Made by a program: the position numbers and the translations under genes. A stretch of 39,892 nucleotides of DNA, taken from the UHGV virus genome UHGV-0038300; one strand, 5' to 3'. Positions 2,415-33,430 of this stretch are shown in pieces. Below the pieces are notes generated by a model, which saw nothing but the letters and a program-made list of their open reading frames with translations, did no database searches and had not been told where the DNA came from. The stretch is from a virus. How positions within the stretch are numbered: position 1 is the stretch's first letter; each line of letters begins with the position of its first letter.

Positions 2415-4955
2415 TCATTTTTTTACATTGCCATTTTCAATGGCGAAAATTCTCTCTTCCATATTATCAATTCTCTCCCAGCATTGCTGAATTGATTTAA
2501 CAATAGGTGGGATGAATTCATCGTAACCAAGTGAGTAAACATCATCCCCACCATTTTTCAAGTGATGCTGTAGCCCACCGAACTCAACACCTAATTTTTC
2601 ACACAGTTTCAATACGTCCTGTGCAATAAACCAGTGATGGTATCGTTGACGTTTTTTACTGCCGTCAGGAGTTTTCTGCACTACTTCAAGATATTTTTCT
2701 TCGACATTCTCAATAGCTGATACAGTAATTCCATCAACATCTCGCTCTACTTTTTTTGGTACAATTCTTGTTTTTTCAATAACATCAACATAATCATCAC
2801 GCATATCCCAGCGACCATCGACAGGACGAAGCCCAAGGATAAATTCAATCCCCAGCAAGGTATCTCGGATATCTGTTTTATCACGCGCATCAGATCTGTT
2901 TTGCACAGTTCCATATACATATGTCGTTGTGGAAGAATTGCCAAGCTGCACCTGGTTACTTCCAGACACCCTTGCATCATTGCCAACAGTTGTTGTGTTG
3001 GTAAGTGATGATGTGCTTTCCCCTGATTGAGTTAATCTACCTGAATTATGTCCAATAGCCGTGTTTAATGCGCCGGTTGTATTTGTGACAAGAGAGCCAG
3101 ACCCAATTGCAACGTTACTGCTTCCCGATGTTGTTCCTTTTAATGCCTGCTGTCCAACCGCAACATTATTATCACCCGTTGCTGCTATAAGTGCCATGTG
3201 ACCAATAGAAACGGTAAATGAACCTAGCGTTTGAGTTTCACCGCATGCCCCATAACCAATTACAACAACATTATCTGTAATTGTTGACTCGGTTGCCGCT
3301 CCAGCACCAATAACAACGCTTTCATTCCCGGCAAGATTCTTGCGCATTGCGAACATTCCAATGCCAACATTATCATGCCCAGTCCCTGTACCTGCTGCCT
3401 CCGCAGCACCAAGACAGTTTCCCGCTCTGTAGCCAACCATGGTGTTATTTGAACCAATAGAGAAGTCTCCGGAAAAAGAGCCTACGTATACACTATTAGA
3501 CTGAGAGTAATCTCCAGGATTTCCATTCGCCCGATATCCTACTGCAACTGTATAAATAGTATCTGGAGCCTCAGCCATGGCCTCAAAGCCAACTCCAACG
3601 TTATATCTACCGCCCTTAACTTTTTCTCCTGCACCAAGTCCGAAGAATGAGTTATAGCTCCCGGTTGTTAGCCACTCGCCAGCAACAGAACCTACAGCAG
3701 TGTTTCCTGTTCCAGTACATCGATACAAAGTCAGGAAGCCAACTCCGGTATTATTATTTCCTGAAATATTACTCATCAATGATTTTGACCCAATGGCAGT
3801 ATTGTTAACACCATCGGTCAGATCCTGTAACGCTCGCGGGCCAAATGCTGTATTATCGTAACCCTTTGGCGCTGTTGTTGGATCTGGTAACTCAGGGGTT
3901 AGTTTTTCACCACCACCACCATTGGCACAAAGATTGTAAGATCGAATAAATTCAGCCACTGGCCCAAGTTTTAAATAACCATTGGCAATATTAATTCTGA
4001 CACTTACATTAACTGAGCTACCAGGAGCTTCTATTGTCCTGTCATCAACCCAGGTAAAACTCTGTGGTATCCCGTCATAAGTTAATGTCACATCTCCTTT
4101 ATCATTATAATTATAGAACAATGTATAACGCTCATTTATAGATTCAGAACCTGATGATCCTCCTCTCCTCCACCACTCTGCATTATCAAAAATAAGTAAT
4201 CCCGGACCATAATATTTAGCTTTCTGCCCCAAAATCATAGGGCTTGATAATCTCCATACCCCCTCAGGAACATATATATTGCTACTTATTCTTTCAGCAT
4301 TATTAAAAGCAGTATCACATAGCTCGTCACCACCTTCTTTAGCTCCAAAGTCCAGAACACTGACAGTATCCCGCATCTTATCCTGGAACGTTCGATATAC
4401 TGCTCCAGAACCATACTGAATAAACCAACCAAAACCACCAACAACCCCGGCGATTGCAGCATCGACATAATTACGCATTGAGCGATTATTTACAGCGTCC
4501 TGCTCAAGTGATGGATCTGCAAGGTTAGAAATTCTGTTTTGCTTTGCATCGTAATATTTTGCAAGCAAAGATGGTTTCATCAATGCACGTCTGAACCATC
4601 CAAAACATTGCTGGATCAGCATCGTCAGATAGTCAAAGGCATCTTCATGCACCTCGGGGAAAAATTTTCCCTGATTACGAAGATCAGTCTCCTGCACCAC
4701 ATCAAGCACACGATCTATCGTAATTCGCCATCCAGCAGCAAGCGGCGACGGAAGAACAACAGAACCGCCACTATAAGTGCCCGCCCCAGTTACCGTATAA
4801 CCGGTATCCAGAACCAATTCTGTTACGTTCCCGTTCAGGTCAGACACCTGAACAACCAGGTCGGATTTTTTGAAAATACGGAAGGTGTACGGGAATGATG
4901 TCGTAATGCCGTTACCGGTGTATTCGTTGTGGTCAACTTCGGTTGAGACCGTCAT
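2415..4955 (-). CDS. Tail fibre with glycine-rich fibre repeats and a C-terminal peptidase S74 intramolecular chaperone domain
   Basis: N-terminal TGNGITTSFPYTF fibre-anchor-like motif, long G/N/S-rich repeats, and the C-terminal autoproteolysis motif ...NRSDARDKTDI... followed by a chaperone-like domain. Confidence 0.85.
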   Translation of the reverse strand: MTVSTEVDHNEYTGNGITTSFPYTFRIFKKSDLVVQVSDLNGNVTELVLDTGYTVTGAGTYSGGSVVLPSPLAAGWRITIDRVLDVVQETDLRNQGKFFPEVHEDAFDYLTMLIQQCFGWFRRALMKPSLLAKYYDAKQNRISNLADPSLEQDAVNNRSMRNYVDAAIAGVVGGFGWFIQYGSGAVYRTFQDKMRDTVSVLDFGAKEGGDELCDTAFNNAERISSNIYVPEGVWRLSSPMILGQKAKYYGPGLLIFDNAEWWRRGGSSGSESINERYTLFYNYNDKGDVTLTYDGIPQSFTWVDDRTIEAPGSSVNVSVRINIANGYLKLGPVAEFIRSYNLCANGGGGEKLTPELPDPTTAPKGYDNTAFGPRALQDLTDGVNNTAIGSKSLMSNISGNNNTGVGFLTLYRCTGTGNTAVGSVAGEWLTTGSYNSFFGLGAGEKVKGGRYNVGVGFEAMAEAPDTIYTVAVGYRANGNPGDYSQSNSVYVGSFSGDFSIGSNNTMVGYRAGNCLGAAEAAGTGTGHDNVGIGMFAMRKNLAGNESVVIGAGAATESTITDNVVVIGYGACGETQTLGSFTVSIGHMALIAATGDNNVAVGQQALKGTTSGSSNVAIGSGSLVTNTTGALNTAIGHNSGRLTQSGESTSSLTNTTTVGNDARVSGSNQVQLGNSSTTTYVYGTVQNRSDARDKTDIRDTLLGIEFILGLRPVDGRWDMRDDYVDVIEKTRIVPKKVERDVDGITVSAIENVEEKYLEVVQKTPDGSKKRQRYHHWFIAQDVLKLCEKLGVEFGGLQHHLKNGGDDVYSLGYDEFIPPIVKSIQQCWERIDNMEERIFAIENGNVKK

Positions 4956-5058
4956 GTTAAATCTCCAGATAGTCGCAGCACCCGTTGCGCCGCATATCTG
5001 GTTATTCTATTACCTGAAAAACCACATATGGATAGAAAGACTATAAATACCAATAGAT

Positions 5059-5075
5059 ATTACCTTTCGGGTAAT
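5059..5075. promoter_or_regulatory. 17-bp palindromic operator-like site ATTACC-TTTCG-GGTAAT
   Basis: Perfect 6-5-6 inverted repeat belonging to the dispersed site family; upstream of the LexA box and the tail-fibre gene. Confidence 0.6.
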
Positions 5076-5113
5076 TTGCAAAACGTGCTGGATAGCAAAC
5101 AAATTATTTGCTA

Positions 5114-5129
5114 CTGTATAAATATACAG
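5114..5129. promoter_or_regulatory. LexA (SOS) box CTGT-ATAAATAT-ACAG
   Basis: Perfect CTGT-N8-ACAG with an AT-rich spacer (tactgtataaatatacagtt), 22 bp upstream of the ATG at 5151. Confidence 0.8.
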
Positions 5130-5150
5130 TTATTGCATGGAGAAGATAAG

Positions 5151-5408
5151 ATGCAGCAGTATCACTATCCACTGGAAGACGGATTTACCGAAAGGATTCA
5201 CACGCCGGGAGGCGTCAGATCACTGGTGGAGGGATCGCACTTGATGAAATTACTCCGGGATCTCGATAAGGATGGATTTAATGTCGATGGCCCACTTGCC
5301 GAACTGACTGCACTGATTAACTACGTCACCAGCTCACAGATGTCTATGCGGGATCTGCAAACACATCTCGACTATTGTGCCGAACAATTACGAAAACAAA
5401 CCCGGTAA
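5151..5408 (+). CDS. Small (85 aa) antirepressor-like protein, homologous to the C-terminal domain of the Bro-N antirepressor; candidate SOS-inducible antirepressor
   Basis: RBS ggagaag then ATG 5151. Aligns with the C-terminus of the 6555-7247 product (PL..G....IH.P.GV..L.E.S.LM.LL..L..DG..V.G..AELT......V......RD.QTH..Y). The upstream part of the listed ORF is occupied by regulatory sites. Confidence 0.7.
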   Translation: MQQYHYPLEDGFTERIHTPGGVRSLVEGSHLMKLLRDLDKDGFNVDGPLAELTALINYVTSSQMSMRDLQTHLDYCAEQLRKQTR

Positions 5409-5430
5409 ATTTAAAGGCCGCAAGAGCGGC

Positions 5431-6159
5431 CTATCGTTTCGCTTTGTGCTCATCCCAGCACGTTTTGCACCATGCCATTAAGCCGTCCGCATTTTGATTA
5501 TTAGGGTAAAAGCTGGTTCGTTTTCTGCGGACATTACAAATTGGGCACCACTTCATATGGCGTGTATTCTTTGGGCCATCGAGACACCTTGCACACCACT
5601 TAGTCAATCCATCTGGATTTTTTGACGATTTCCTGAATTTTTCATATGGAAGGTTTATTCTGCATCGCAAGCACTGCTTGCTACCACTTGAAACTCTGTT
5701 AGCTGATTCTTCTTTTGGCGGCGATACAGAAGGTATTCTTGCTGGCTCTGATACTGCCTGAGGTGCTTTTTTAGATGACTGAGACGATATGTCACCACCA
5801 GGGAATCTTCCATGATATGCCGGACGCGTTGACACTCCAGGTGGAAGCTCAGCTGTAAACGGCTTTGGCTGAATCAGTTGCCTCTCTTTTGCTAACTCCT
5901 GCTGTTTATAATATGTCTGGATTACCGCACTATCATAAGCAGGAGGTGCGGAAATATTAGGCGCATTACCTCCAGTTTTTTGAAACTGAGTAGAGGTGTG
6001 TTCTATCACCTGTGTACGATTAATCGTTATCTCCCCATCTTCGGTCTTTATCGTTTTGTTATGATTAACGACCGTACGATCAGAGATCTTAGTCTTGTTC
6101 TGGTTGATAACGTAAATAATCACCGCAACCACACCAACAACTATCCAGAAAACTTCCAT
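5431..6159 (-). CDS. Membrane-anchored protein with a C-terminal duplicated Cys-rich (zinc-ribbon-like) module; function unknown
   Basis: N-terminal TM helix (MEVFWIVVGVVAVIIYVI), Pro/Ser-rich linker, then CLRC...WCARC and CPIC...WCKTC repeats; RBS gaggaaaag before the ATG; operator-like site just upstream. Confidence 0.6.
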   Translation of the reverse strand: MEVFWIVVGVVAVIIYVINQNKTKISDRTVVNHNKTIKTEDGEITINRTQVIEHTSTQFQKTGGNAPNISAPPAYDSAVIQTYYKQQELAKERQLIQPKPFTAELPPGVSTRPAYHGRFPGGDISSQSSKKAPQAVSEPARIPSVSPPKEESANRVSSGSKQCLRCRINLPYEKFRKSSKNPDGLTKWCARCLDGPKNTRHMKWCPICNVRRKRTSFYPNNQNADGLMAWCKTCWDEHKAKR

Positions 6160-6178
6160 TTCTTTTCCTCACAATAAC

Positions 6179-6195
6179 ATTACCTTAAAGGTAAT
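6179..6195. promoter_or_regulatory. 17-bp palindromic operator-like site ATTACC-TTAAA-GGTAAT
   Basis: Perfect inverted repeat about 20 bp upstream of the 5431-6159 gene start (minus strand). Confidence 0.6.
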
Positions 6196-6271
6196 ATCTT
6201 GCTTTCAGGTGATCAAGCGTTAAACCAAATCAACCAAATACGGTTGATTTTAATATTTCTTCACGTTTATC

Positions 6272-6288
6272 ATTACCTTTGAGGTAAA
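6272..6288. promoter_or_regulatory. 17-bp operator-like site ATTACC-TTTGA-GGTAAA overlapping a putative rightward promoter
   Basis: Overlaps a -10-like TATCAT (6268-6273) set 18 bp after a -35-like TTGATT (6244-6249). Confidence 0.5.
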
Positions 6289-6554
6289 TTTACATCGCAC
6301 TCCTCTTGTGCCATAGTAATCGGGCACTGGCAAAATCCAGTGCCGGGATTGGTCTCCCGGATTACTACAGAGGCACATATGCCGCATAAGCGGTTTTTTT
6401 ATGTGTAAAGCGCACCTATTCTATGGTGGGCTGTGTGGGGGCACCGAAAGGTGCGCCGGGTTCCTTTGTAGCCGGTAAGACCAACTCTGCACAGTTCACC
6501 ACCATCTGATTGGTCTCAGCGGTGGTGATTAACCTAACTACAAAGGTGATCGCC

Positions 6555-7247
6555 ATGAATACCAAACCTTCCATCTTTTCCTTTGAGTCATCCTGCCAGA
6601 TCCGTATGTTCATGATTGACGGAGAACCTTGGTTTGTCACCAAAGATGTGTGCAATGCTTTGAATATTGATGTTACACAAGCGAGAAAACTTGATAAAAA
6701 AGGCTGGAACAAAAAGGGGCTGTATTCAATACAGACCCCTGGTGGAATACAAGAACTATCCATCGTTTCAGAATCAGGTCTCTACATCCTTATTCTGCGT
6801 TGCAAAGAGGCAATGACAGGGGGAACGAGAGCATTCAGATTTCTTGAATGGGTTACAGGTGAGGTTCTTCCTCAGATCCGCCGCACAGGAAGTTACATTA
6901 AAAACTCGCTCCCGCAGGAAGAACGCATAAAGATGGTTGCCGACCAGGTAGCCAACGCCACGGCGTCAGCAGTAATGCAGGCGATGAAGATAGAGAACAA
7001 AACCTACAGTGCCCCGCTGAAGCCCGGCTACCGCAGCCTGATTCATTCGCCGTCTGGTGTTCTCGGCCTGACGGAGAACTCACTGCTGATGAATTTGCTG
7101 AACCAGTTACAGGAAGACGGGCATGATGTATCGGGCGCGGCAGCGGAGCTGACCACCATGTTCTGCTACATCGTCGGTGTGAGCAAATGCCTGCGTGACA
7201 TCCAGACTCACGCGGAGTACATCAACGACAAAGCAGGGTTCTTCTGA
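6555..7247 (+). CDS. Antirepressor with an N-terminal Bro-N domain
   Basis: N-terminus ...FSFESSCQIRMFMIDGEPWFVTKDVCNALNI... is typical of Bro-N/Ant proteins; RBS aaggtga before ATG 6555 (the listed ORF begins at an upstream TTG). Confidence 0.8.
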   Translation: MNTKPSIFSFESSCQIRMFMIDGEPWFVTKDVCNALNIDVTQARKLDKKGWNKKGLYSIQTPGGIQELSIVSESGLYILILRCKEAMTGGTRAFRFLEWVTGEVLPQIRRTGSYIKNSLPQEERIKMVADQVANATASAVMQAMKIENKTYSAPLKPGYRSLIHSPSGVLGLTENSLLMNLLNQLQEDGHDVSGAAAELTTMFCYIVGVSKCLRDIQTHAEYINDKAGFF

Positions 7248-7311
7248 CGGCGGCGGCACAGGGATGTGCCTTTAAAATAATCATTGGCGATGTGATGTAG
7301 ATTCGCGTAAT

Positions 7312-7328
7312 ATTACCTTAAAGGTAAA
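7312..7328. promoter_or_regulatory. 17-bp operator-like site ATTACC-TTAAA-GGTAAA
   Basis: Inverted repeat about 25 bp upstream of the 7354 start codon. Confidence 0.55.
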
Positions 7329-7353: not shown

Positions 7354-7563
7354 ATGGGATTTTGGTTCGCTCGTACAAAAACGAGGGATAATGCACCCAG
7401 CCCTCAGGCAAAAAATGCAGAAGTTCCGGCGTCAGCGCAGGTTAACAAGCGTGGTGGAGTATATATCTCATCACAGCAAATTTCTGAGCTTCCTGAGGTT
7501 AAGGAGATGCGTCGTCTCGCTGCTGCAATTGTTAAACAGGATCTTGCCACTGTAAGGAAGTAG
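7354..7563 (+). CDS. Small hypothetical protein (69 aa), first gene of a two-gene accessory module
   Basis: Strong RBS gaggaggag 6 nt before the ATG; its stop TAG overlaps the GTG start of the next ORF by one nucleotide. Confidence 0.55.
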   Translation: MGFWFARTKTRDNAPSPQAKNAEVPASAQVNKRGGVYISSQQISELPEVKEMRRLAAAIVKQDLATVRK

Positions 7564-8429
7564 TGTTGCTAGCTCTTCTAATTATCCCAATCCTGGTTAG
7601 CGGTTATATTATGATAACCGCTAACCAGTATCATTATTTCCGTTTATACCGACACGAAGGCCAGCTTCTTTATATGAAAGTAGCGGCACTAGGTACATAT
7701 TGCCTTGTTGCATCAGTAATAATTGCAGCCGCTATAAAATATAAATGGCCTGATTTTCACCTAGTTCACGATATGGTGGAAACTTTTAATGTAACATCAA
7801 AACCAGAAACAGATAGAATTTACATGTGGCTGCTTCTTCTCTCAGCCACATCCATTTGCTTCTCTTTGTGTTATGTGTCTGTTGTGTGGGTGAAAGATTT
7901 TCTTCTTGGTTGTTTTTATAAACGTGATATTTACGAGCAAAAAACAGAGGCAATGAAGGCCAGAGTACTGCGAAAAACTTACTCGCAAGGTTCTTTAGAC
8001 TTACTATTGCTTGATGCTATTGAATCGGATCCTAAACGACCAATGCTGATTACTTTATCATCAAACAAAGTGTATGTTGGAATAATAAATGGTTCTGGTG
8101 AACCAACGGAAAATCAGGGTCCGCATCAGCACATATCTTTTGTTCCTTTAATGTCAGGATACAGGAACAAAGAAAACTTATCTGTCACATTCACTAATGC
8201 TTATCCAGGAGAAATACAGGTCAAGCGGACTGCAGCAATAAGAGGAATTAGCAGAAAGAAAGTGCCAGGACTTGAGATCATGGTGTCTATTGACGAAATA
8301 AGTTATATATCATGGTTTGATTTTGAAGTATATAAAGCAACAAATAACAAAGTAGAATCCAGGGGGCACGTTATTCGTGTTACCAAAAATGGAAGAAATA
8401 TATATCAAAGAAATAGCAAAAAAGAATAG
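7563..8429 (+). CDS. Hypothetical membrane protein (3 N-terminal TM helices plus a ~170-aa soluble C-terminal domain); candidate exclusion/abortive-infection-type accessory protein
   Basis: Long ORF with hydrophobic helices at about aa 2-18, 35-58 and 85-110; markedly AT-rich compared with flanking phage genes; exact start (GTG 7563 or a nearby codon) uncertain. Confidence 0.6.
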   Translation: MLLALLIIPILVSGYIMITANQYHYFRLYRHEGQLLYMKVAALGTYCLVASVIIAAAIKYKWPDFHLVHDMVETFNVTSKPETDRIYMWLLLLSATSICFSLCYVSVVWVKDFLLGCFYKRDIYEQKTEAMKARVLRKTYSQGSLDLLLLDAIESDPKRPMLITLSSNKVYVGIINGSGEPTENQGPHQHISFVPLMSGYRNKENLSVTFTNAYPGEIQVKRTAAIRGISRKKVPGLEIMVSIDEISYISWFDFEVYKATNNKVESRGHVIRVTKNGRNIYQRNSKKE

Positions 8430-8521
8430 CCCGCGCTGCGGGCTTTTTTGTGGACGAAACAAAAGTCAGTGCTACACTCATTGACGCCACATTGAGGTGG
8501 CTTATAGATGGAAATTTCACA

Positions 8522-8875: not shown

Positions 8876-11350
8876 TTATTGCGGAGTGACATCCTGAGGT
8901 CGCCACCAGTATGTCTGGTTAAACTCTTTCTTCGAACGTTGCTCCATTTTACGCAAATAACCTGGTGAAAAATACTCCTGCATCTGGTTAAAGATCATGT
9001 GATCGAGAGCCGCCTTTAAGTACCAGAGATTCGCACCTGGCATCAGACCTTTCCCCAGCTTGACCAGATCACCACCAGTCTGCTCATTCTTCCCTTCCAC
9101 AGCATTTAACGGTATGCCCTGAGCAATCTTCACTACGTCATCAACCAGACCAGCTACCGGGCCAAGCATCGACGCCAGCGCGCCGCTTCCGTACCTAGTG
9201 TGATCTGACAATAAAAAGTCACCGTAAAGGCCAAGACCACCACCTTTCAGTAGAGCACCAAGCCAAAATTTAGCAGCATCTTCTCCTGTCATCTCACGAG
9301 GATTACGACCAGACGCAAGGTCGTTAAGTTGCTGCGACAAAGCGCCAAGAATGGTCGTACTGGCAATAAACGTCGCAATATATGCCGCACGCCCACCAGC
9401 AGACGGCATACCCATAGCGCGTGACCAGTGACGCATAACCACCGAGATAGGGAACGATTTAAACAGGAAAACACTTCTCGTTAATTCACCTTTCCATGTT
9501 CCACGCTGAATACCAGAACCGGTTATCAGTTGCTCACGTGCTCCCGGTGTAATAACAGCCATATCAACTTCTTCAGTTACGGCACCGAGCAGTTTACGCA
9601 TTGCCTCAAATTTCACGCGTTCAGACTCACCAAGATGTTTAACTGCTGAATCAGGGATACGCATAATGCTTTCCGGTGTCAGCATCGTATTATTACCGTT
9701 CCCCCAGTCCTCCTGTTGCGCCAGCTTCCATACGCTCCAGTCTGTGTCAGTAATCCCTTTGCTTTTCAGGATACGAAAATCAGAGTCATCGAGGCTACGA
9801 AGGTCTGGTGTCCGTGACACTACTTCTCCCAGGCTTCCCATCATGGTTACGCCATAGGCGCGCTTGTGCGCATCTGACCATGCTGTAAGCCCACTGGCAC
9901 GCATTACCGCCGTTGCCGCCCAACGAGACACTGACGGCCCCATATTATCCATCGCCCAGCGGTTAACGCTGCCAAGTAGAGATTCCATCGCCAGACCAGC
10001 GCGGCGCGCCCGCGCAAGTTCTGTACGGTTCGTTGGGTCCATAGCTTCAAGCTGGTTGCGGAATAACTGGTTCATTGGAAGGTTGGTAACCTTCGCAGAC
10101 AGATACATGGTTCCAAGATCAGAGAACGATGACAGCAACGCGGATCCGAGTCTGCTGGCAACCAGCCAGTTGCGGATATTGTCAGACCATCGCGCGATGT
10201 GCGGATTCGCTACAGGCTGTGTCTTTCCGGAAATAAAGTTGTACAGATTCTCTGTGTTGTTCGCCAGCCGCTCGACTTTACCGGTTTTACTCGGGTTAGC
10301 TGTTGCCGTTTCTGCCTTAACCTGATCAAGAAGGGAGCGGAAAACATGATCGGGGTTTGGACCATATGTTTCCACCAGAGCAATATCTTTACTGATACCT
10401 TCCAGGTGACCGACCATGATTTCCCATAGAGAGCGATCACCATAAAGTTGTTGATATTGGAGATAGGAATCTGCATCTTTGAAATGTATCTGTCGTGATG
10501 CATTACCACGGTTAGCACGTGCGCCGGAAATTCGCATTCCGGTATCAGTAAGCTTATTCAGCCCACCAGTAGCGATCGTGTTATAAGCCTCTCCAAGAAA
10601 TGCAGACAACTCGGCATCGTTCATCAGTTGTCCATCGGCTCGGGTATAATATTTGCGATCCAGCTTACCTATAACATCGCCAACCCACTTATCCTTTGAT
10701 ACCGCCCCAACCTTTTCCATAGAATGATGTTGAGGGATCCCCCAGTTTTCGAGATAGCCAATGTCCCCACCAGCATCATTAAACCGGCGGCGCAGCAGCT
10801 CTGTAACTTCTCTCCACGCCTTAGCACCTTTTCTTGCTTTAGCATTGCCAGTATTTTGCCCTCGCATTTCATATACCAGGTCACGCACGCCAGCTTCATC
10901 TTCAAACAGGCCAAAAAAGCGAGGATCAACTGCTTCAAATGCCTCTTGCAATTGACTCAATGCATAATCACGAGTGGCTTTTGTTCTGGACTCAACAGAG
11001 AGGAAATTCGATTTACCGTCTGCATTAAAAGCAATAGTACGGTTAAGAGCGCCAAGTTTCCCATCAGCCCCTTGATAGCTATTGATAAATTTATCCAATC
11101 TCTGACGTGCGGCTATAGTGAGGGCCACACGACGTTTCTTTAATGCCGCTTCTCGCTGTAATTCTTCAGATGCCAATTGTGCTGCACGATATAGCCGCTC
11201 TGATTCGGAAAGTTGTCTCCACGACATCGGGTCATCACGAGCAATGGAGCGCATATTTCGATAAATGCGGTCTTCAATGTTCTGTATTTCTCGCGCCGTT
11301 AACGTGCGCTGCGCCGCCTGCTGGACCGCTTGTATACATTCCTGTCTCAT
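8876..11350 (-). CDS. Large internal virion / DNA-ejection protein (gp16-position in a T7-like order)
   Basis: 824-aa ORF at the end of the structural operon after two other large ejection-type proteins; no enzymatic motif recognised. Confidence 0.6.
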   Translation of the reverse strand: MRQECIQAVQQAAQRTLTAREIQNIEDRIYRNMRSIARDDPMSWRQLSESERLYRAAQLASEELQREAALKKRRVALTIAARQRLDKFINSYQGADGKLGALNRTIAFNADGKSNFLSVESRTKATRDYALSQLQEAFEAVDPRFFGLFEDEAGVRDLVYEMRGQNTGNAKARKGAKAWREVTELLRRRFNDAGGDIGYLENWGIPQHHSMEKVGAVSKDKWVGDVIGKLDRKYYTRADGQLMNDAELSAFLGEAYNTIATGGLNKLTDTGMRISGARANRGNASRQIHFKDADSYLQYQQLYGDRSLWEIMVGHLEGISKDIALVETYGPNPDHVFRSLLDQVKAETATANPSKTGKVERLANNTENLYNFISGKTQPVANPHIARWSDNIRNWLVASRLGSALLSSFSDLGTMYLSAKVTNLPMNQLFRNQLEAMDPTNRTELARARRAGLAMESLLGSVNRWAMDNMGPSVSRWAATAVMRASGLTAWSDAHKRAYGVTMMGSLGEVVSRTPDLRSLDDSDFRILKSKGITDTDWSVWKLAQQEDWGNGNNTMLTPESIMRIPDSAVKHLGESERVKFEAMRKLLGAVTEEVDMAVITPGAREQLITGSGIQRGTWKGELTRSVFLFKSFPISVVMRHWSRAMGMPSAGGRAAYIATFIASTTILGALSQQLNDLASGRNPREMTGEDAAKFWLGALLKGGGLGLYGDFLLSDHTRYGSGALASMLGPVAGLVDDVVKIAQGIPLNAVEGKNEQTGGDLVKLGKGLMPGANLWYLKAALDHMIFNQMQEYFSPGYLRKMEQRSKKEFNQTYWWRPQDVTPQ

Positions 11351-25281: not shown

Positions 25282-25358
25282 GTGGCATTAGCTCAGTCGG
25301 ACAGAGCAACCGCCTTCTAAGCGGTTGGTCGCAGGTTCGAATCCTGCATGCCACGCCA
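25282..25358 (+). tRNA. tRNA-Arg (anticodon UCU, reads AGA), 77 nt with encoded CCA
   Basis: Hand-folded cloverleaf: acceptor gtggcat/atgccac, D-stem gctc/gagc, anticodon stem accgc/gcggt with loop cTTCTAa (U33, A37), T-arm gcagg-TTCGAAT-cctgc, discriminator G, CCA. Confidence 0.85.
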
Positions 25359-25587
25359 GAATCACGCCTAAGGACCGTGATGCCAGAAGTTCCAGGTGCT
25401 TGGCGGTGATGGTTTCCCTTGAGGGACTATCACCGCCCTTTTTACAGCAGGACGCCATTGCGATGACTTCATGCTGTAAACCCGTACAGCCACGGAAGGC
25501 AAAACTCATTGCTTCCAGTTCGCCCGGTTCGCCGGGCATTTTTTTAAGGTGTGAATCATGAAATACGAATTCGATGGATTTTGATGT

Positions 25588-32726: not shown

Positions 32727-32791
32727 TTCACCCATAAGGTAACAAAAATCAAGGATAGTTACCTATGAGGTGCATTTACCTGTTGGGTAAT
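32727..32791. promoter_or_regulatory. Right operator region: three 17-bp sites at 32727-32743, 32758-32774 and 32775-32791 between the divergent cro-like and repressor genes
   Basis: TTcACC-CATAA-GGTAAC, GTTACC-TATGA-GGTgcA and TTTACC-TGTTG-GGTAAT; tripartite arrangement as in lambdoid OR. Confidence 0.65.
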
Positions 32792-32845: not shown

Positions 32846-33430
32846 ATGAAAAGTATCCAGGACGTCCGCAGGCAAAATCTCAACGACTTGATCGACCGTG
32901 AATTCAATGGTGTTCAGACGCGGATGGCAGAAAAACTTGGAACTCAGGCAAATCTGGTAAACCGCTGGGCTCTTGGCAAGAAGGTTATCGGCGACCAGGT
33001 TGCGCGAAAAATTGAAGCTGCCGCCAATAAACCACGTAACTGGCTTGATATCGATCGCTCGCTTTCTCAGGAAGGTTTTCAGCCTGTCGGCCCAAGCGAC
33101 ATTGGTCAGCTGGCGGCTCACAACCTGGAACGCTGGATGAGCGAAAGCCGCGACCTTTCAACACAGGGAAAACTTCACCGCGCATCCGGCGTCGCCCAGG
33201 TGACAATCAGCCGCCTGTTAAACAATGAGGTCAGCGTTTCCATTTCCACCCTGGAGAATGTTGCATCCGCATTCGGGCGTCACGGCTATGAATTACTGAT
33301 TCACCCGCACGACCCTGCGACCATCAACTATGACCGCTCGCGCTACGCATTGTTACCCGAAACCGAGAAAGCAAAGATCGAAAGTTACATTGAATTTGTC
33401 ATCAACCAGAACGAAAAAAACAAACAATAA
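32846..33430 (+). CDS. CI-like prophage repressor with an N-terminal XRE-type HTH, a second HTH-like segment and no LexA/S24 peptidase domain
   Basis: HTH ...VQTRMAEKLGTQANLVNRWALGKK...; no Ser-Lys peptidase signature seen; divergent from the cro-like gene and followed by a strong terminator. Confidence 0.65.
   Translation: MKSIQDVRRQNLNDLIDREFNGVQTRMAEKLGTQANLVNRWALGKKVIGDQVARKIEAAANKPRNWLDIDRSLSQEGFQPVGPSDIGQLAAHNLERWMSESRDLSTQGKLHRASGVAQVTISRLLNNEVSVSISTLENVASAFGRHGYELLIHPHDPATINYDRSRYALLPETEKAKIESYIEFVINQNEKNKQ

Follow-up and report, generated by a model that had tools for sequence, protein, structure and literature searches.

Two genes of an Escherichia coli Uetakevirus share an Ant-like domain and are predicted to respond to different induction signals

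The question raised by this locus is whether a temperate phage deploys one antirepressor domain twice, under two different controls. The window analyzed here, that is, the whole 39,892-nucleotide (nt) stretch of UHGV virus genome UHGV-0038300, is a temperate Escherichia coli podophage of the phiV10/epsilon15 group (Uetakevirus), and the region of interest matches Escherichia phages TL-2011b, EC.W1-9, HEMP4, ZX5, and phiV10. A preliminary description had reported two open reading frames (ORFs), at 5151–5408 and 6555–7247; our analysis reproduced these coordinates and placed both on the plus strand, with lengths of 85 and 230 amino acids (aa), respectively. It had also proposed that a single effector domain, present in both proteins, is placed under two induction signals, and we judged this to be the best reading of the locus. 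The dual deployment of one effector domain is real, and it is assembled from known components, each of which belongs to a described family.

The two proteins share an Ant domain

The two genes were identified as follows:
5151–5408, plus strand: small antirepressor Ant, 85 aa, a stand-alone SPC32H-type domain (matches to 5D50_E, SPC32H ant, and phrog_450)
6555–7247, plus strand: Bro-N::Ant fusion antirepressor, 230 aa (matches to Pfam Bro-N, 5D50_E, phrog_130, phrog_1760, and phrog_450)

The preliminary description had aligned the small protein by eye with the C-terminus of the large one. A pairwise BLASTP comparison upheld that alignment, joining residues 2–75 of the 85-aa protein to residues 149–222 of the 230-aa protein without gaps (32 identities in 74 positions, or 43%; 58% positives; E 1e-16), and all of the motifs listed earlier (PL..G, IH.P.GV, LM.LL, DG..V.G..AELT, and RD.QTH..Y) lie inside it. 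Both proteins matched phrog_450 (E 7e-48 for the small protein; E 3e-37 for residues 147–228 of the large one) and PDB chain 5D50_E, "Anti-repressor protein" (residues 2–84 of Ant, E 1.4e-46; residues 149–225 of the Bro-N protein, E 9e-14). Sixteen residues are invariant in both subfamilies of the domain; the subfamilies are clearly separate and have different C-terminal tails. On these comparisons the paralogy across the C-terminal domain is genuine and far above chance. A tblastn search found exactly two copies in the window and ruled out a third.

The Bro-N domain (PF02498) was found by Pfam in the large protein, at residues 16–106 (nt 6600–6872; 51.2 bits vs. a cut-off of 25.6), and was absent from the small one, as had been described. 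It is followed by a low-confidence linker (residues ∼117–153) and the Ant-like domain (residues 149–225, nt 6999–7229). The P22_AR_N score of the same protein (17.6 bits) was below the Pfam cut-off of 30.7. The start ATG and the Shine–Dalgarno sequence are kept in relatives, and there are numerous full-length homologues with 66–99% identity and the invariant motifs. Residues 141–230 are 100% identical to ZX5 ORF4 and TL-2011b; residues 1–140 are only 68% identical to ZX5 and TL-2011b and 62% to Tyrion, and the EC.W1-9 protein is ∼99% identical throughout. Judged by these identities, the protein is a mosaic exactly at its domain boundary. A single-sequence AlphaFold model of it had a predicted local distance difference test score (pLDDT) of 35.7. 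An AlphaFold2 model from 27 sequences reached a mean of 62.1; its N-domain was moderately confident, its linker (117–153) disordered, and its C-domain helical. Foldseek gave the N-domain model weak winged-helix-like matches (Ski/Dachshund, APSES; E ≥ 0.02).

The preliminary description had also called for a database search with the small domain alone, and stand-alone copies of 82–97 aa do exist. Among 1.84 billion representatives, an exhaustive profile search with both subfamilies found a small family of 65 clusters (E ≤ 0.001). The members were either stand-alone proteins of this size or the C-termini of proteins of 150–319 aa whose N-termini were AntA, Bro-N, Phage_pRha, or ORF6N. The full range of fusions was visible only in this search: in word-indexed protein searches, the small Ant retrieved close stand-alone relatives only, and the C-domain mainly short proteins and one partial AntA fusion.

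The small ant gene has a LexA box

By sequence, the small protein is the already known SPC32H-type Ant rather than a new paralog. It is 86.7% identical to SPC32H ant (tblastn), and its gene occupies the same genomic slot beside the tailspike gene. The SPC32H Ant–Rep system was reportedly described by Kim and Ryu (J Virol, 2013) and by Kim and colleagues (PNAS, 2016), and Ant was crystallized with its repressor (PDB 5D50). Three elements lie upstream of the window gene:
5060–5074, no strand assigned: operator-like palindrome TTACCTTTCGGGTAA, in the divergent intergenic region between the tailspike gene and ant, upstream of the small ant promoter
5089–5117, plus strand: tentative ant promoter, read by eye, with −35 TGGATA (5089–5094), a 17-nt spacer, and −10 TACTGT (5112–5117)
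5112–5131, no strand assigned: LexA (SOS) box TACTGTATAAATATACAGTT, overlapping the putative −10, with its core CTGT-N8-ACAG at 5114–5129

The LexA box noted earlier proved to be real. It is located 20 nt before the ATG region of ant, agrees at 18 of 20 positions with the LexA consensus, and is conserved in six phages, including phiV10, SPC32H, ZX5, Tyrion, and TL-2011b. The motif CTGT-N8-ACAG occurs in the window at 5114 and 25474 only, and a search for it between 6160 and 6555 found no LexA box; a box near the ant genes is thus exclusive to the small one. The GTGCTGGATAG block and the TACTGT of the tentative promoter are invariant in six phages, and the promoter scored under the threshold of the consensus promoter scan; we only infer a promoter at this position.

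Many automatic gene calls start the small ant at an upstream ATG at 5028, giving a product of 126–127 aa (e.g., P0013, with 833 member sequences). This extension would take in both the palindrome and the LexA box, which identifies the 85-aa form as the genuine one. In RefSeq and in most phage entries the protein is labeled "hypothetical." The small Ant of Klebsiella relatives is 60–64% identical, and identity follows host genus, not Rep divergence.

In SPC32H, ant synthesis is repressed by LexA (Kim & Ryu 2013, via PMC7380047), the repressor Rep is not cleaved and its inactivation is by Ant (PMC7380047), and Ant works as a tetramer (PMC9638917). The small Ant of the window is very likely a LexA-gated SOS trigger of the same kind.

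The Bro-N gene has an IsrK/C4 leader

What sets the Bro-N copy apart is control by an RNA switch, which the preliminary description had overlooked. That description had set a LexA box for one gene against palindromic operators for the other. The two genes do differ in control, and the palindromes are upstream of both, so that half of the contrast fell away. The leader of the Bro-N gene contains the following elements:
6273–6287, no strand assigned: operator-like palindrome TTACCTTTGAGGTAA, which adjoins the isrK promoter at its −35 and is centered about −44 from the predicted start
6289–6317, plus strand: isrK/C4/Bro-N-ant promoter (promoter scan), with −35 TTTACA, a 17-nt spacer, and an extended −10 TGcCATAGT
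6324–6400, plus strand: IsrK small RNA, the equivalent of the a1/b1 upstream C4 target (Rfam RF01394, 74.7 bits, gathering threshold 50, full length)
6419–6506, plus strand: C4 antisense RNA (Rfam RF01695, 78.6 bits, gathering threshold 45, full length)
6510–6549, plus strand: C4 target in the Bro-N ant gene's 5′ untranslated region, comprising UUGGUCU (6510–6516) and CUACAAAGG (6538–6546), exact complements of the C4 loops

phiV10, ZX5, Tyrion, and TL-2011b all show high conservation of the 280 nt 5′ of the Bro-N gene's ATG. The −10 of the isrK promoter is invariant in five phages, and the promoter ends 7 nt 5′ of the Rfam isrK match. IsrK itself ends in an intrinsic terminator (6381–6394 plus T7; terminator scan) and contains two elements complementary to the C4 loops, UUGGUCU (6349–6355) and CUACAGAGG (6365–6373). 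The corresponding unpaired elements of C4, CCUUUGUAG (6463–6471) and AGACCAA (6478–6484), are at loop or junction positions in the consensus structure. In the window and Tyrion, CCUUUGUAG pairs exactly with CUACAAAGG, and AGACCAA with UUGGUCU; CUACAAAGG overlaps the Shine–Dalgarno sequence of the Bro-N gene, AAAGGUGA (6542–6549). A second class (phiV10, ZX5, and TL-2011b) has the pairs CCUUUUAG/CUAAAAGG and ACGCCAA/UUGGCGU, with all three partners altered together, including a compensated 1-nt length change at the Shine–Dalgarno element. As aligned, these changes are compensatory covariation that defines two specificity classes. The pairings were identified by an exact-complement word search and by folding of the full leader, the output of RNAduplex with whole RNAs being uninformative. 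The complete leader folded far more stably than shuffled sequences (z = −4.76), and in this fold the C4 loops were engaged in cis by the IsrK elements.

IsrK and C4 were above the Rfam gathering thresholds in all five relatives with a Bro-N gene, and Rfam found neither in SPC32H, which is without this gene. The same pair was found by Rfam upstream of the antirepressor genes of Gifsy-1 (anrP) and VT2-Sakai, where the Rfam family "a1,b1 targets of C4" covers the position of IsrK. Relatives of the leader were detectable in 225 phage records. No Rfam match to the sar antisense RNA was found in the window. A small upstream ORF of 28 aa ends 46 nt before the Bro-N ATG; in relatives it has 35 or 15 aa, its sequence diverges after the first 13–14 residues, and across Uetakeviruses it ends 22–85 nt before the ATG. 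These results make it highly probable that Bro-N::Ant is gated by IsrK/C4, in the manner of an immI region.

Rep and the operator-like palindromes

The presumed common target and the palindromes are located as follows:
32846–33430, plus strand: Rep repressor, full-length match to PDB 5D50_A, "Repressor" (E 4e-42), flanked by palindromes at 32728, 32776, 33488, and 33550
15-bp palindrome sites: 5060, 6180, 6273, 7313, 24945, 27743, 27761, 30383, 30445, 32391, 32728, 32776, 33488, 33550, and 39669

The palindromes of the preliminary description are real: TTACC-N5-GGTAA (extended consensus ATTACC-N5-GGTAAT) occurs 15 times in the window, vs. 0.75 expected, and an additional copy with two mismatches is present near 32758. 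A palindrome with a 6-nt spacer was not enriched, the correct spacer being 5 nt. Almost all of the sites are intergenic, although the genome is ∼93% coding, and they are clustered around rep. Several fall between rep and a divergent 76-aa gene and others just downstream of rep, a layout as for repressor operators. The site at 5060–5074 has an exact counterpart in SPC32H, ZX5, and Tyrion and one mismatch (GGTGA) in phiV10 and TL-2011b. The type at 6273–6287 is present in all five relatives and is exact in phiV10, ZX5, Tyrion, and TL-2011b. With the same type of palindrome upstream of both ant genes and at 13 other sites, it makes no distinction between them; the sites are probably operators for Rep, for a Cro-like protein, or for both, serving many promoters.

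The Rep of the window is 100% identical to the ZX5 and phiV10 repressor and only 41.8% identical to SPC32H Rep. Between the window and SPC32H a conserved Ant (∼87%) would have to cope with very different Reps.

A model with two routes to induction

In the model that we favor, a single repressor is opposed by two antirepressors of the same fold, and we hold this model, as a whole, with moderate confidence. Lysogeny would be kept by a noncleavable Rep, probably bound to the ATTACC-N5-GGTAAT palindromes. LexA would occupy the box at 5112–5131 until DNA damage clears it, and the Ant then made would bind Rep and dismantle its tetramer, as in SPC32H. The promoter at 6289–6317, beside the operator, would yield the short IsrK RNA, and read-through of the IsrK terminator a longer RNA that includes both C4 and the message for Bro-N ant. 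Pairing of the C4 loops with UUGGUCU and with CUACAAAGG over the Shine–Dalgarno sequence would block translation, and IsrK, with the same two target elements, would compete for C4, so that Bro-N::Ant would be made only when the IsrK/C4 balance permits, e.g., during infection, following derepression, or in SOS-independent conditions. Its C-domain would then act on Rep as Ant does; that it is the same Rep we think somewhat more probable than not. Bro-N::Ant may serve in SOS-independent induction (as in Gifsy-1), in anti-immunity early in infection (as in P1 or P22), or as a positive-feedback amplifier after Rep is inactivated. The choice among these roles depends on whether the operator at −44 represses or activates the isrK promoter; in the model both the direction of this effect and the physiological signal are conjectural.

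The only experimental support for the action of the large protein comes from phage ZX5, whose Rep is identical and whose Bro-N protein has the identical C-domain. When the Bro-N protein was overexpressed in ZX5, lysogeny fell ∼1000-fold (prophage counts of 1e6 instead of 1e9), and repressor transcripts were down by 75% (PMC9782041). That study deals with the Bro-N protein only and contains no mention of SPC32H or the small Ant.

Several points weigh against this model. We infer, from sequence, both the action of either protein on the Rep of the window and the identification of the palindromes as Rep operators, and an operator centered near −44 could activate rather than repress the isrK promoter. 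The two Ant domains are only 43% identical, so that they may have differing partners. With Rep at 41.8% identity to SPC32H even though Ant is at ∼87%, the transfer of the SPC32H mechanism is an extrapolation, if a reasonable one. The coupling ORF of Gifsy-1 (orf45) and P1 (icd) is unconserved here, and the details of the RNA switch may differ accordingly. In the AlphaFold2 model the C-domain had pLDDT values of 56–73, and Foldseek against the PDB gave it no match at E ≤ 0.001 and did not list 5D50; with a weak model and weak fold matches, structure adds nothing to the sequence evidence. Finally, the ZX5 assay used overexpression of a glutathione S-transferase (GST) fusion of the Bro-N protein, not of the C-domain alone (PMC9782041).

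The low identity, the two subfamilies, and their different C-terminal tails would also be expected if the targets had diverged, with the small Ant acting on its own Rep and Bro-N::Ant serving as an anti-immunity weapon against the repressors of other prophages. Bro-N::Ant would then be made early after infection and silenced by C4, comparable to P22 Ant acting on lambdoid repressors and to Gifsy cross-talk. The immI-type architecture with C4, the two C4 specificity classes among otherwise similar phages, the name "putative anti-immunity protein" given to the Bro-N protein in the phiV10 record, and the cross-talk documented among Salmonella prophages via antirepressors (PMC7380047) fit this explanation. 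We consider it rather unlikely. ZX5 ORF4, with the identical C-domain, affected the lysogeny of ZX5 itself, whose Rep is identical, and the domain family is narrow (65 clusters in 1.84 billion representatives). Moreover, the 35 records of a phage collection that matched the small Ant and the 37 that matched Rep were largely the same Uetakevirus-like phages, which argues for the same target class.

Less probable still, and in our judgment quite doubtful, is that the shared domain is mainly an oligomerization module, by which Bro-N::Ant forms mixed tetramers with the small Ant, modulating or tethering it, or is multimerized as a DNA-binding regulator. P1 Ant1 and Ant2 have a common C-terminus and are reported to form a complex, and the N-domain model weakly resembles winged-helix DNA-binding folds. 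SPC32H Ant is tetrameric (PMC9638917) and Bro-N proteins are thought to bind DNA (PMC9782041). A C-domain that is found alone and behind at least five unrelated-looking N-domains is, however, more typical of an effector than of an aid to any single DNA-binding domain, and the Salmonella relatives function with a small Ant only. It seems very improbable to us that recombination left the Bro-N gene behind as a moron, silent or in decay, with no role in the switch. The phiV10 homologue is broken by a frameshift into p23 and p22, and the region is mosaic (N-domain 68% and C-domain 100% identical to ZX5), with an unrelated 242-aa gene inserted between the ant genes. Against decay, phages of E. coli, Enterobacter, and Klebsiella have conserved the gene intact, together with its complete RNA leader, and 105 of 5426 complete E. 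coli genomes carry the gene at ∼98% identity. The many full-length homologues with invariant motifs and the overexpression phenotype in ZX5 point the same way, and the RNA–target covariation implies selection on regulation. The model of one repressor with two antirepressors remains the one we favor.

Comparison with known systems

The small Ant and its surroundings resemble the SPC32H Ant–Rep system (PDB 5D50/5D4Z) in having an Ant of the same length (∼87% identical), the same placing of the LexA box and upstream palindrome, the same slot, and a homologous Rep. The window differs in its more distant Rep (41.8%) and in adding Bro-N::Ant, with an Ant domain that shares 43% identity with the small protein. 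SPC32H, SPN1S, and epsilon15, unlike the window, have no second Ant-domain gene and no IsrK/C4.

The leader resembles the isrK–orf45–anrP region of Gifsy-1, which has an IsrK with a terminator, a C4-like RNA (STnc1160), and an antirepressor on the read-through transcript. In Gifsy-1, IsrK in trans activates translation of the isrK–orf45–anrP read-through message, and anrP induces the prophage (PMC4825925, Hershko-Shalev et al. 2016); IsrK increases in stationary phase and at low Mg (PMC4825925). A separate LexA-controlled antirepressor of Gifsy-1 has been reported (PMC7380047), a precedent for the two-route design. The differences are that orf45 overlaps the start of anrP and couples translation, whereas the C4 of the window pairs directly with the ant Shine–Dalgarno sequence, and that AnrP has no Ant-like C-domain and no paralog that we could find in Gifsy-1.

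The resemblance to the immI operon of P1 and P7, reportedly of the order c4–icd–ant1/ant2 in the account of Citron and Schuster from 1990, extends to a C4 in the leader of an antirepressor operon with complementary elements both upstream (a1/b1) and at the downstream ribosome-binding site. P1 and P7, like the two classes described here, differ in C4 specificity, and they are heteroimmune. P1 Ant1 and Ant2 are in-frame long and short forms with a common C-terminus, reported to form a complex; in the window, by contrast, the long and short forms are separate genes with separate promoters, 43% identical, and there is no icd. The window antirepressors had no match indicating a relationship to P1 Ant in Pfam and PHROG searches. 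P1 Ant is under the control of C1, C4 RNA, and Icd, and, as is probable in the window, there is an operator of the primary repressor at the promoter (PMC8201110).

P22 immI (mnt–arc–ant, sar) is similar as a second immunity region in which an antirepressor is held back by an antisense RNA; the P22_AR_N and sar elements are present only in the relative TL-2011b, not in the window. Regulators of the Bro-N/KilA-N/AntA/Rha/ORF6N class likewise have an N-terminal Bro-N-class domain and an exchangeable C-domain, and domain shuffling among these phage regulators was reportedly described by Iyer, Koonin, and Aravind in 2002. The window differs from them in that its C-module can be assigned to a repressor-binding protein of characterized structure and function and is located beside its own stand-alone form.

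Portability of the Ant domain

The IsrK/C4 leader also precedes the genes for Gifsy-1 AnrP and VT2-Sakai Ant, but these proteins end in another C-terminal domain, which fits the C-terminus as the repressor-specific part. They also show that C-domain sharing between an RNA-gated and a small antirepressor is not a general rule, neither protein having an Ant domain and AnrP having no paralog. Taken together, the fusions, the stand-alone copies, the mosaic boundary, and these comparisons mark the C-terminal domain as a self-contained module that moves with the Rep type, the N-domains and regulatory cassettes being exchangeable.

Further copies of the domain were observed outside the window. TL-2011b has a third Ant-domain protein of 314 aa (7472–8416, minus strand), in which P22_AR_N forms the N-terminus and the C-domain shares 91% identity with that of the window Bro-N protein; a P22-type sar antisense RNA (RF00262, 44.8 bits) adjoins its gene at 8418–8485 on the plus strand. 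In TL-2011b one domain is therefore predicted to be under LexA, IsrK/C4, and sar-type control. The E. coli prophage contig AATQEC010000007.1 (3001–3294) encodes a stand-alone 97-aa copy of the Bro-N-type C-domain, with 93% DNA identity to window 6975–7270. It sits between methylase and integrase genes, overlaps the end of the MT-A70 methylase gene, and replaces a small ORF of the window (38182–38376). Klebsiella and Raoultella chromosomes encode a 95-aa stand-alone Ant-like protein (P0131; "anti-repressor protein" in one source) in a small island with an AlpA-like regulator and a HicAB pair. This island may be a satellite-type element with an antirepressor against a Uetakevirus-type Rep, presumably comparable to P4 with its epsilon protein. 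No LexA boxes were found beside these stand-alone Bro-N-type copies, either in AATQEC010000007.1 or in Klebsiella/Raoultella.

What the analysis provides is a modest, useful insight at the level of annotation, with no new mechanism or kind of system. In the accessible literature we found no statement that the SPC32H Ant fold is present twice in E. coli Uetakeviruses (thrice in TL-2011b), or that in these phages the fold is fused to Bro-N under a C4/IsrK switch. The analysis joins two subjects kept apart in the accessible papers, the solved SPC32H Ant–Rep switch and the IsrK/C4-gated Bro-N "antirepressors" that are common among enterobacterial prophages, the ZX5 study being the only experimental paper on such a phage. 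The true SOS antirepressor of E. coli Uetakevirus-like prophages is annotated "hypothetical protein," and the exact arrangement is present in the 105 complete genomes mentioned above. An Ant fold at the C-terminus of a Bro-N protein is a concrete, testable effector assignment in a modular antirepressor, and the locus offers a natural system for studying how SOS-driven and RNA-gated induction are joined in a single prophage.

A broader proposal, which we regard as speculative and improbable, is that the Ant fold is a portable repressor-specific warhead behind interchangeable N-domains and cassettes (LexA box, IsrK/C4, sar, or early operon), that stand-alone and fused forms might form mixed tetramers, and that the C-domains of the Bro-N/AntA/Rha class define the repressor attacked. 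If mixed tetramers were formed within one cell, induction would respond jointly to DNA damage and to an immunity or physiology signal encoded in RNA; if the C-domains define the target, the repressor attacked by Bro-N/AntA/Rha proteins could be read from co-resident small antirepressors.

Neighboring genes

Both ant genes are flanked by the tailspike gene (2415–4955, minus strand) and an 824-aa gene (8876–11350, minus strand), the product of which is homologous to SPC32H_018. Between them the following terminator was found:
5415–5432, no strand assigned: GC-rich hairpin, a probable bidirectional terminator (terminator scan), with the convergent ant (plus strand) and 242-aa gene (minus strand) on either side

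The 242-aa gene (5431–6159, minus strand) is an insertion that separates the two ant genes, relative to phiV10, ZX5, and Tyrion, and it brings its own operator palindrome (6180–6194); the TL-2011b version is annotated as a noncoding remnant. In its product (phrog_6762) a membrane helix at the N-terminus is accompanied by two zinc-ribbon repeats of the form CxxC...CxxC, with weak Stc1 and endonuclease-VII-like matches. Downstream of the Bro-N gene are an operator palindrome (7313–7327), a 69-aa gene (7354–7563, phrog_5739), and a 288-aa membrane-like gene (7563–8429, phrog_3630). The latter two genes had no match in Pfam or PADLOC and may be a moron or superinfection-exclusion cassette. PADLOC gave no defense-system match for the genes neighboring the ant pair, the 242-aa gene included. 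Elsewhere in the window, a tRNA-Arg gene (anticodon tct) is located at 25282–25358, and 116 nt downstream of it is the sole other CTGT-N8-ACAG, CTGTAAACCCGTACAG (25474–25489), which is probably due to chance.

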